A stretch of 36,792 nucleotides of DNA, taken from NCBI GenBank assembly GCA_030606585.1, contig JAUWGD010000002.1, positions 1 through 36,792 on the forward strand, written 5' to 3'. This DNA comes from Dehalococcoidales bacterium. Lineage in GTDB: Bacteria > Chloroflexota > Dehalococcoidia > Dehalococcoidales > RBG-16-60-22. The text below is the continuation of a report on this DNA, generated by a model with database tools. The letters are not shown here.

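Follow-up and report, generated by a model that had tools for sequence, protein, structure and literature searches.

Organization of the Gene Cluster

A block of 15 co-directional genes (5022–24906), separated by gaps of 21–175 bp, occupied the central part of the window. In order, it encoded a DUF35 protein, a thiolase-like protein, two ACADs, an M24 protein, a FAD_binding_2 flavoprotein, a CoA-transferase (CoAT), a trio of GlcD-like, HdrD-like and FAD_binding_4 proteins, 4-hydroxybutyryl-CoA dehydratase (AbfD), an Fe-ADH, an alpha/beta hydrolase, a protein similar to the transhydroxylase large subunit AthL, and UbiX. A MarR gene (4252–4851) was located ahead of this block, and a near-consensus promoter-like site was obtained by pattern matching at 4911–4939; nothing convincing emerged when a MarR operator was sought as an inverted repeat.

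The left arm, on the minus strand, comprised a Mo/W bis-PGD enzyme similar to acetylene hydratase (AH; 1959–4163), a CocE/NonD hydrolase (231–1934) and a 4Fe-4S ferredoxin-domain gene truncated by the left edge of the window (1–125). The convergent right arm (24921–36690) encoded a 145-aa protein, (methyl)malonate-semialdehyde dehydrogenase (MMSDH), a second trio, UbiD, a URO-D-fold protein and a DctP lipoprotein, and was interrupted between the second trio and UbiD by a plus-strand gene for a chagasin-type lipoprotein.

The coding density of the window was 93%, and its G+C content was even (0.48–0.57). No hits were obtained in tRNA and Rfam scans of the window, and hence no riboswitch or integration hallmark; mobile-element genes were likewise absent from it. 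The window is a gene cluster and not a recognizable mobile island.

ORF listing together with Pfam and NCBIfam scans reproduced, gene for gene, the inventory drawn up in the sequence-only reading, which left the truncated 4Fe-4S gene unmentioned. Its claim that export signals are limited to the two lipoproteins also held, a Tat motif being present in neither Mo enzyme. The absences it had listed were borne out by the domain scans, in which no ETF, hydrogenase or FDH module, benzoyl-CoA reductase or phloroglucinol-pathway enzyme was found among the window proteins; for the last group (PGR, DPGC, TfD and TAL), the family list of the anaerobic pathway was taken from PMC10470551. The Pfam families of SDR reductases, cyclase-family C-C hydrolases, 3-hydroxyacyl dehydrogenases and BKACE lyases occurred in no window protein. 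Curated family cut-offs were passed by UbiX, UbiD, MMSDH, CocE/NonD and DctP.

Conservation among Dehalococcoidales Relatives

For every protein tested, the closest homologues were encoded in MAGs of uncultured Dehalococcoidales/Dehalococcoidia and in metagenomes of sediment, cold-seep, soil and bioreactor origin. The DNA identity of the nearest contigs was about 85–90%; the relative L149, a mosaic, showed about 85%. These affinities mark the window as a fragment of a Dehalococcoidales (Chloroflexota) population genome. Exact-match look-ups with its AthL and MMSDH proteins yielded no hit.

A genome scan was performed with the CoAT as query and one genome per species, after which all window proteins were mapped by tblastn. 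It yielded 17 Dehalococcoidales loci with CoAT identities of 70–94%. DUF35, thiolase-like protein, ACAD1, ACAD2, M24, flavoprotein and CoAT were invariant in these 17 loci and are referred to as the core, and MarR was found upstream of it in every locus whose contig extended there.

Other parts of the block varied. The first trio was missing from L001, L013, L014, L015 and L019, AbfD and Fe-ADH from L015 and L017, the alpha/beta hydrolase from L001 and L019, and AthL from L015 and L021. In L001–L004, AthL-like genes were found with no adjoining Fe-S small subunit. The left flank contained CocE in L006 and L018, the AH-like gene in L012, a 64% identical AthL paralogue in L007, L021 and L149, and URO-D in L015. 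L015 had the alpha/beta hydrolase, UbiX, the 145-aa gene, MMSDH and UbiD attached immediately to the core.

The right arm was followed in a metagenome scan with MMSDH as query. It was complete, with its junction to AthL kept, in L065 and L066, and both arm and junction were largely kept in L063, L064, L067, L085 and L092. The gene set is thus co-conserved, but as a modular assembly, with accessory modules coming and going among relatives.

Distribution of the Core in Other Phyla

Outside Chloroflexota, M24 homologues were 55–62% identical, and the core was encountered again in several lineages. In Aromatoleum sp. (L143/L144), the order was TetR, DUF35, thiolase-like, ACAD, ACAD, M24 and OYE, an ene-reductase flavoprotein; L143 further carried hydantoinase A/B, an AMP ligase and beta-oxidation genes. 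Genes for the uptake proteins MMPL and DUF1329 were located upstream. A 5.5-Mb genome (L145) showed UbiD, ETF, DUF35, thiolase-like, ACAD, ACAD, CoAT, M24, OYE and hydantoinase A/B, and the same arrangement with a second OYE was present in Syntrophorhabdus from a terephthalate reactor (L147). In Desulfosporosinus BRH_c37 (L148), beta-oxidation genes were followed by UbiD, DUF35, thiolase-like, ACAD, ACAD, M24, OYE and CoAT. Two of the core-bearing lineages are known for anaerobic aromatic or alicyclic degradation.

The identity of these other-phylum proteins to those of the window was highest for M24 (59–61%), CoAT (59–60%) and ACAD2 (56–59%), followed by ACAD1 (45–46%), UbiD (40–41%), the thiolase-like protein (36–39%) and DUF35 (33–37%). 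Locus L152 represented an intermediate lineage, in which M24 and CoAT were 69% identical to the window proteins. Its order was MarR, DUF35, thiolase-like, ACAD, ACAD, M24, RidA, flavoprotein (49%), CoAT, two FAD_binding_2 paralogues, ferredoxin, AH-like (65%) and FAD_binding_4.

The core is most readily regarded as an old, laterally shared catabolic module carried by several lineages. The exchange of the FAD_binding_2 flavoprotein for OYE within it suggests an ene- or enone-reductase step, and the independent joining of UbiD, the AH-like enzyme and GlcD-like proteins to the core argues for a functional link. The hunch of such a link in the sequence-only reading gains from this repeated re-association, which demonstrates no single step. 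No description of the cluster or of its core was found in the literature under Dehalococcoidia with AbfD, Aromatoleum hydantoinase/OYE, creatinase with UbiD/ACAD, resorcinol reductase, or cyclohexanedione/5-oxohexanoate.

Features of the Core and Accessory Enzymes

Over its full length, AbfD shared 59% identity with its C. aminobutyricum counterpart (1u8v; E 2.2e-197), and the [4Fe-4S] ligands Cys99, Cys103, His292 and Cys299 were kept (motifs CFQRC and YHRQSYGGC). By this similarity, it is the one confidently predicted function of the cluster and implies a step from 4-hydroxybutyryl-CoA to crotonyl-CoA. For the CoAT, the best 11 PDB matches were all 4-hydroxybutyrate CoA-transferases (E 1e-64 to 6e-51), with succinyl-CoA:acetate transferases at E 1e-8, which places it, by predicted function, in the 4-hydroxybutyrate CoA-transferase subfamily (AbfT/Cat2). 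Since its orthologues in other phyla lack an AbfD neighbour, its physiological acid may be another short functionalized acid.

The best relative of the thiolase-like protein was BbsB, and matches to PhlC and Ltp2 were also obtained. Its Cys84 was kept; the HDxF motif was replaced by YDLT in Dehalococcoidales and by QDTD in other phyla, and GHP by GEC or SEP in every orthologue. In the retro-aldolases Ltp2 and Sal, the catalytic Tyr lies in the motif YD(H/C)x, the second residue is the His/Cys of this motif or Tyr344, and the thiolase nucleophile is lost (PMC12329534). The Tyr of the window protein (Y295) corresponded to the catalytic Tyr of Ltp2/Sal, the third motif position was Leu, the Tyr344 equivalent lay near Glu345, and the nucleophilic Cys was kept. 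As aligned, the combination of Cys, Tyr and Glu fits none of the thiolases, aldolases and thiolase-like proteins compared. Both ACADs, read by eye, were without Glu at the MCAD-type YEG position.

The M24 protein matched the expected fold. Its ligand positions, read by eye, were D250, T261, H329, E362 and E376, all five conserved across phyla in the sequences compared by eye, as were the candidate active-site motifs; one canonical Asp metal ligand thus appears to be replaced by Thr. A function of M24 as dihydrophloroglucinol cyclohydrolase was considered and rejected, as DPGC belongs to the 'cyclase' family (PMC10470551). A DMSP lyase/acrylate route composed of a DddP-like M24, AcrC-like ACADs and MMSDH was demoted, given the presence of the module in non-marine aromatic degraders and a DddP score far under the cut-off. 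The flavoprotein resembled soluble fumarate and urocanate reductases more closely than it did KstD.

The two trios were paralogues with 38–41% identity, each matching the GlcDEF architecture, and their scores were far below equivalog level (GlcD 106 vs. 568; GlcF 22–30 vs. 333). The score of UbiX was 278 bits (cut-off 188) and that of UbiD 280 (TIGR00148; cut-off 245), and no substrate-specific UbiD equivalog was reached (VdcC 275 against a cut-off of 650). MMSDH scored 520.9 bits against a cut-off of 448.5 (TIGR01722). The single-sequence AlphaFold model of the 145-aa protein was of low confidence (pLDDT 57). Paired MMSDH and 145-aa genes were present in 58 of the 71 loci; their neighbours included ABC transporters, AOR, SDRs and methyltransferases, and the pair also adjoined a 66% identical AthL paralogue in the unrelated region L151. 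Being so widespread, the pair says little on its own by its presence in the cluster.

Features of the Mo/W Enzymes

The AhtL-type N-terminal domain and the bis-PGD fold (PF21423, PF00384 and PF01568) were all found in the AthL-like protein, which was 35% identical to 4v4c_A over 874 positions. H157, D188 and S189, located in the motifs DGHGETK and N(P/T)DSWEGW, were kept in the window protein and in all paralogues examined; they correspond to His144, Asp174 and Ser175 of transhydroxylase, of which Ser175 is reportedly the Mo ligand in the structure of 2004. In the HMMER alignment, Arg153 of transhydroxylase was replaced by Ala, Trp354 and Tyr560 fell into deletions, and Tyr404 was aligned with Pro in a region of low confidence. 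These four residues belong to the substrate/cosubstrate pocket of transhydroxylase.

A gene for the small subunit BthL, which carries three [4Fe-4S] clusters, did not adjoin the AthL-like gene, whose flanks were the alpha/beta hydrolase and UbiX, and no Fer4 protein was encoded within the operon. The sole Fer4 gene of the window was the truncated one at its left edge, in another transcription unit. The missing electron-transfer partner suggests that the AthL-like enzyme would most likely catalyze a redox-neutral hydroxyl shift or a hydration; alternatively, by analogy with BisC, it might take electrons directly from a soluble donor.

Paralogues of the AthL-like gene were abundant, with several per contig and at least 64% identity in all of the best 120 matches listed. 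Hug et al. 2013 and Wasmund et al. 2016 (PMC3971608, PMC4959651) had already recorded such AthL-like genes, and AH-like ones, in sediment Chloroflexi, though not in the context of a pathway. The idea that L017 retains a BthL-like remnant between its two AthL genes was dismissed, as the match covered only 23 residues inside a 100-bp spacer.

The AH-like enzyme was 37% identical to acetylene hydratase. Its CxxCxxxC motif and ligand Cys aligned with 2e7z and were kept in the L012 and L152 orthologues. The position of Asp13 was occupied by His (CRMCHGVCG), and the same change was present in the orthologues from L012 (87% identity) and L152 (65%). In acetylene hydratase, Asp13 is the essential water-activating residue next to the second cluster Cys; this role is reportedly the subject of work by Seiffert in 2007 and by tenBrink in 2011. 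The downstream 4Fe-4S gene would fit a reductive reaction of the AH-like enzyme. The nearest characterized relatives of acetylene hydratase are gut catechol dehydroxylases (PMC7028382). Atypical active sites are thus predicted for the thiolase-like, AthL-like and AH-like proteins.

Discussion

The cluster is an anaerobic catabolic gene cluster built from familiar families in an undescribed, widely conserved combination. It shares single enzymes or pathway logic with known systems but fails the defining features of each complete one. With the gallate/pyrogallol route of Pelobacter acidigallici it has in common a UbiD/UbiX-type decarboxylase encoded together with an AthL-family Mo enzyme, the Ser/Asp/His core of AthL, and cytoplasmic oxygen-sensitive enzymes ending in short acyl-CoAs. 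Unlike that route, the window has no BthL and no homologues of PGR, DPGC, TfD or TAL, and the residues binding pyrogallol and the cosubstrate differ; it possesses ACADs, M24, AbfD, the trios and the AH-like enzyme, which the Pelobacter/Clostridium route does not use.

The module by which Clostridium aminobutyricum and C. kluyveri ferment 4-hydroxybutyrate, GABA or succinate (AbfT/Cat2, AbfD, 4-hydroxybutyrate dehydrogenase and SucD) is matched by AbfD, an AbfT-type CoAT, an adjacent Fe-ADH and a nearby CoA-acylating semialdehyde dehydrogenase, although the latter is MMSDH and not of the SucD type. In the window, however, this module is set in a far larger operon, two of the relatives lack its AbfD and Fe-ADH, and in other phyla the CoAT occurs without AbfD, so that 4-hydroxybutyrate may not be the main substrate.

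The oxidative resorcinol/alpha-resorcylate systems of Azoarcus anaerobius and Thauera aromatica AR-1 (RhLS/DbhLS, a decarboxylase and HHQ dehydrogenase) resemble the window in combining a Mo enzyme of the AthL/RhL clade with a decarboxylase and TRAP-type uptake, which in those systems serves a dihydroxy-aromatic acid. Their hydroxylases, unlike the AthL-like enzyme, contain a small Fe-S subunit and depend on an electron acceptor, and counterparts of BtdhLS and BqdhLSM are absent from the window. Membership of the AthL/RhL clade follows PMC10100899. The reductive resorcinol pathway of Clostridium KN245 and the anaerobic cyclohexanol pathway of Alicycliphilus, in which a cyclic 1,3-dione leads by way of 5-oxohexanoate to beta-oxidation, resemble the invariant core in predicted logic only, namely in flavin-dependent enone reduction or desaturation, beta-diketone cleavage, CoA activation of a short oxo-acid, dehydrogenation and thiolysis. 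Genes of the reductive resorcinol pathway were not found in the literature searched, and the comparison is one of logic, not of sequence.

The thiolase BbsAB, the aldolases Ltp2-ChsH2 and Sal-Shy and the Friedel-Crafts acylase PhlACB share with the core a separate DUF35 gene and an SCP-x-type thiolase-fold gene beside a heteromeric ACAD; BbsB is the best structural relative, and the YDxx motif has a Tyr like that of the aldolases. The window protein differs from Sal in keeping the nucleophilic Cys and from BbsB and the SCP2 thiolases in lacking both catalytic His residues. Together with Glu in place of the GHP His in all orthologues, this combination has been described for no characterized member, and the window has neither a MaoC hydratase nor a PhlA partner. 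The AH-like enzyme shares with the gut actinobacterial catechol dehydroxylases Dadh, Cldh and Hcdh and with acetylene hydratase the bis-MGD clade (through the relation of AH to the dehydroxylases; PMC7028382), the Cys ligand, the N-terminal [4Fe-4S] cluster and the downstream 4Fe-4S gene; it differs from Dadh, Cldh and Hcdh in having no Tat signal or membrane anchor, and from acetylene hydratase in the change of Asp13 to His.

Gene order and its conservation support a conserved, regulated catabolic cluster organized on a CoA-dependent core with accessory modules. From gene identity, synteny and ligand conservation, we infer a series of chemical steps that modifies the earlier scheme and is put forward tentatively, as a possible account: a hydroxy-aromatic acid would be degraded by way of UbiD, the Mo/W enzymes and dione cleavage. 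A carboxylated hydroxy-aromatic compound would enter the cell, the prFMN-dependent enzyme would remove its carboxyl group, and the two Mo/W enzymes would re-pattern the ring hydroxyls. The flavoprotein would then turn the enone tautomer into a cyclic 1,3-dione, a C-C bond of which would be cut by M24 and/or the atypical DUF35-thiolase-like pair. After its activation to a CoA ester, the product would be shortened with the aid of the ACADs, and the trios, MMSDH and AbfD/Fe-ADH would handle the 2-hydroxy-acid, C3-semialdehyde and C4 fragments, respectively. The 4-hydroxybutyrate branch fits no known phenol ring-cleavage chemistry and is the main unexplained element of this account. The coherence that the sequence-only reading had perceived in the gene set, and its lack of a match among known pathways, were upheld; the aromatic substrate and the six steps it proposed stay conjectural.

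It is unlikely, though to be weighed seriously, that the cluster is a catabolic hub, with modules co-located and perhaps co-regulated that act independently on different substrates: the CoA-dependent acid-degradation core, a route from 4-hydroxybutyrate to crotonyl-CoA, 2-hydroxy-acid dehydrogenases, a semialdehyde dehydrogenase pair, a prFMN decarboxylase and two orphan Mo enzymes. Independence of this kind would agree with the absence of each accessory module from some relatives that keep the core, with the changing left flank (CocE, AH-like, AthL paralogue or URO-D), the massive paralogy of the AthL-like genes, the assorted neighbours of the MMSDH/145-aa pair, and the identity of CoAT, AbfD and Fe-ADH with the described clostridial route. 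It is harder to reconcile with 15 closely spaced co-directional genes behind one regulator and one promoter-like site, with the return of accessory families to the core in lineages whose proteins are only 40–69% identical (AH-like in L152; UbiD in L145, L147 and L148), or with the renewed adjacency of AthL to MMSDH and the 145-aa gene in the context of the 66% paralogue. A nitrogenous cyclic compound or osmolyte (creatine/creatinine, ectoine, pyrrolidone, or a GABA or proline derivative) is a quite improbable substrate. M24 would act as an amidino- or amidohydrolase, the skeleton would pass through succinate semialdehyde and 4-hydroxybutyrate to crotonyl-CoA and C3 units through MMSDH, and the Ser-ligated Mo enzyme would be a cytoplasmic BisC/TorA-like S- or N-oxide reductase. 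The relatives of M24 include creatinase, DoeA and DddP, the last being the best NCBIfam hit with full-length coverage, and hindering such an assignment is the apparent loss, read by eye, of one canonical metal ligand. Hydantoinase A/B (L143, L145, L147) and RidA (L152) adjoin M24 orthologues, and AbfD, Fe-ADH and CoAT make up a GABA-fermentation set, yet no aminotransferase, deaminase, urease or amine dehydrogenase is present in the window. MMSDH is the outlet of beta-alanine, DMSP and 3-hydroxypropionate, which suits this substrate class. The AthL-like protein scores 368 bits on bisC_fam and, as in BisC, has no Fe-S partner, but its score to AthL is 490 bits against about 265 to DMSO/TMAO reductases. 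Creatinine use was proposed earlier for marine Dehalococcoidia by Wasmund et al. (PMC4959651); the orthologous modules, however, occur in aromatic degraders from non-marine settings, and UbiD, UbiX, the ACADs and the thiolase-like genes would be left unaccounted for.

A route for alicyclic ketones or acids of the cyclohexanone, terpenoid or steroid-ring type, following the logic of anaerobic cyclohexanol or 2,3-seco steroid degradation, also has a small probability. The flavoprotein would desaturate the ketone, a Mo enzyme would add water and carry out the oxidation to a 1,3-dione, and M24 or the alpha/beta hydrolase would open the ring. The seco-acid, once converted to its CoA ester, would be shortened by the ACADs together with the DUF35-thiolase-like pair acting as aldolase or thiolase. 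KstD, cyclohexanone dehydrogenase and enone reductases all belong to the FAD_binding_2 and OYE families, and an M24 homologue is found in Steroidobacteraceae. In the Aromatoleum locus there are uptake genes (MMPL, DUF1329, BNR) of a kind typical of hydrophobic substrates, along with hydantoinase/acetone-carboxylase-like genes; the TRAP binding protein, UbiD and UbiX of the window point instead to a hydrophilic carboxylate, and the CoAT falls into a subfamily for short-chain acids, that of 4-hydroxybutyrate. The Mo hydratases of known alicyclic pathways are xanthine-oxidase-family enzymes, not bis-PGD proteins, and a dehydrogenation by the AthL-like enzyme would lack a partner for electron transfer. 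Heteromeric ACADs with a DUF35-thiolase-like pair form the steroid side-chain set (ChsE, Ltp2, Sal; PMC12329534), and the Tyr of YDLT corresponds to the catalytic Tyr of the aldolases, but the nucleophilic Cys absent from Sal is kept.

Bolder than the preferred degradation of a hydroxy-aromatic acid, and very improbable, is the idea that the cross-phylum module comprises the long-missing genes of reductive dearomatization and cyclic 1,3-dione cleavage, to which subsurface Dehalococcoidales added the Mo/W enzymes and the 4-hydroxybutyryl-CoA branch. DUF35, the Cys/Glu thiolase-like protein, the heteromeric ACAD, M24, the AbfT-type CoAT and an ene-reductase of the FAD_binding_2 or OYE type, frequently joined by UbiD, may then supply a resorcinol-type reductase, a cyclohexanedione C-C hydrolase or thiolase, and the activation and oxidation of 5-oxohexanoate. 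The partner-less AthL-like enzyme and the AH/catechol-dehydroxylase-like enzyme may shuffle or remove ring hydroxyls and in this way channel many polyphenols into the module.

In subsurface sediments, both marine and terrestrial, Dehalococcoidia rank among the most abundant bacteria. Their many AthL-like and AH-like molybdoenzymes, on record since 2013, had been given no place in a pathway (PMC3971608, PMC4959651), and the window and its relatives put them in a conserved operon. Its core is shared with Aromatoleum, Syntrophorhabdus and Desulfosporosinus, which are cultivated or enrichable anaerobes that degrade aromatics, and M24, the DUF35-thiolase-like pair, the AbfT-type transferase and the flavoprotein are therefore tractable entry points. 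The cluster thus offers tractable targets for the function of the molybdoenzymes of abundant subsurface Chloroflexi. If the modules act independently, it would still be a map of recurrent functional units, such as MMSDH with its 145-aa partner. Should a polyphenol or another cyclic compound prove to be the substrate, the cluster would represent a way of turning over carbon in anoxic sediments that depends on neither benzoyl-CoA nor the phloroglucinol pathway, and its cross-phylum core may hold unidentified genes of reductive ring-cleavage routes, such as those for resorcinol or a cyclic dione.

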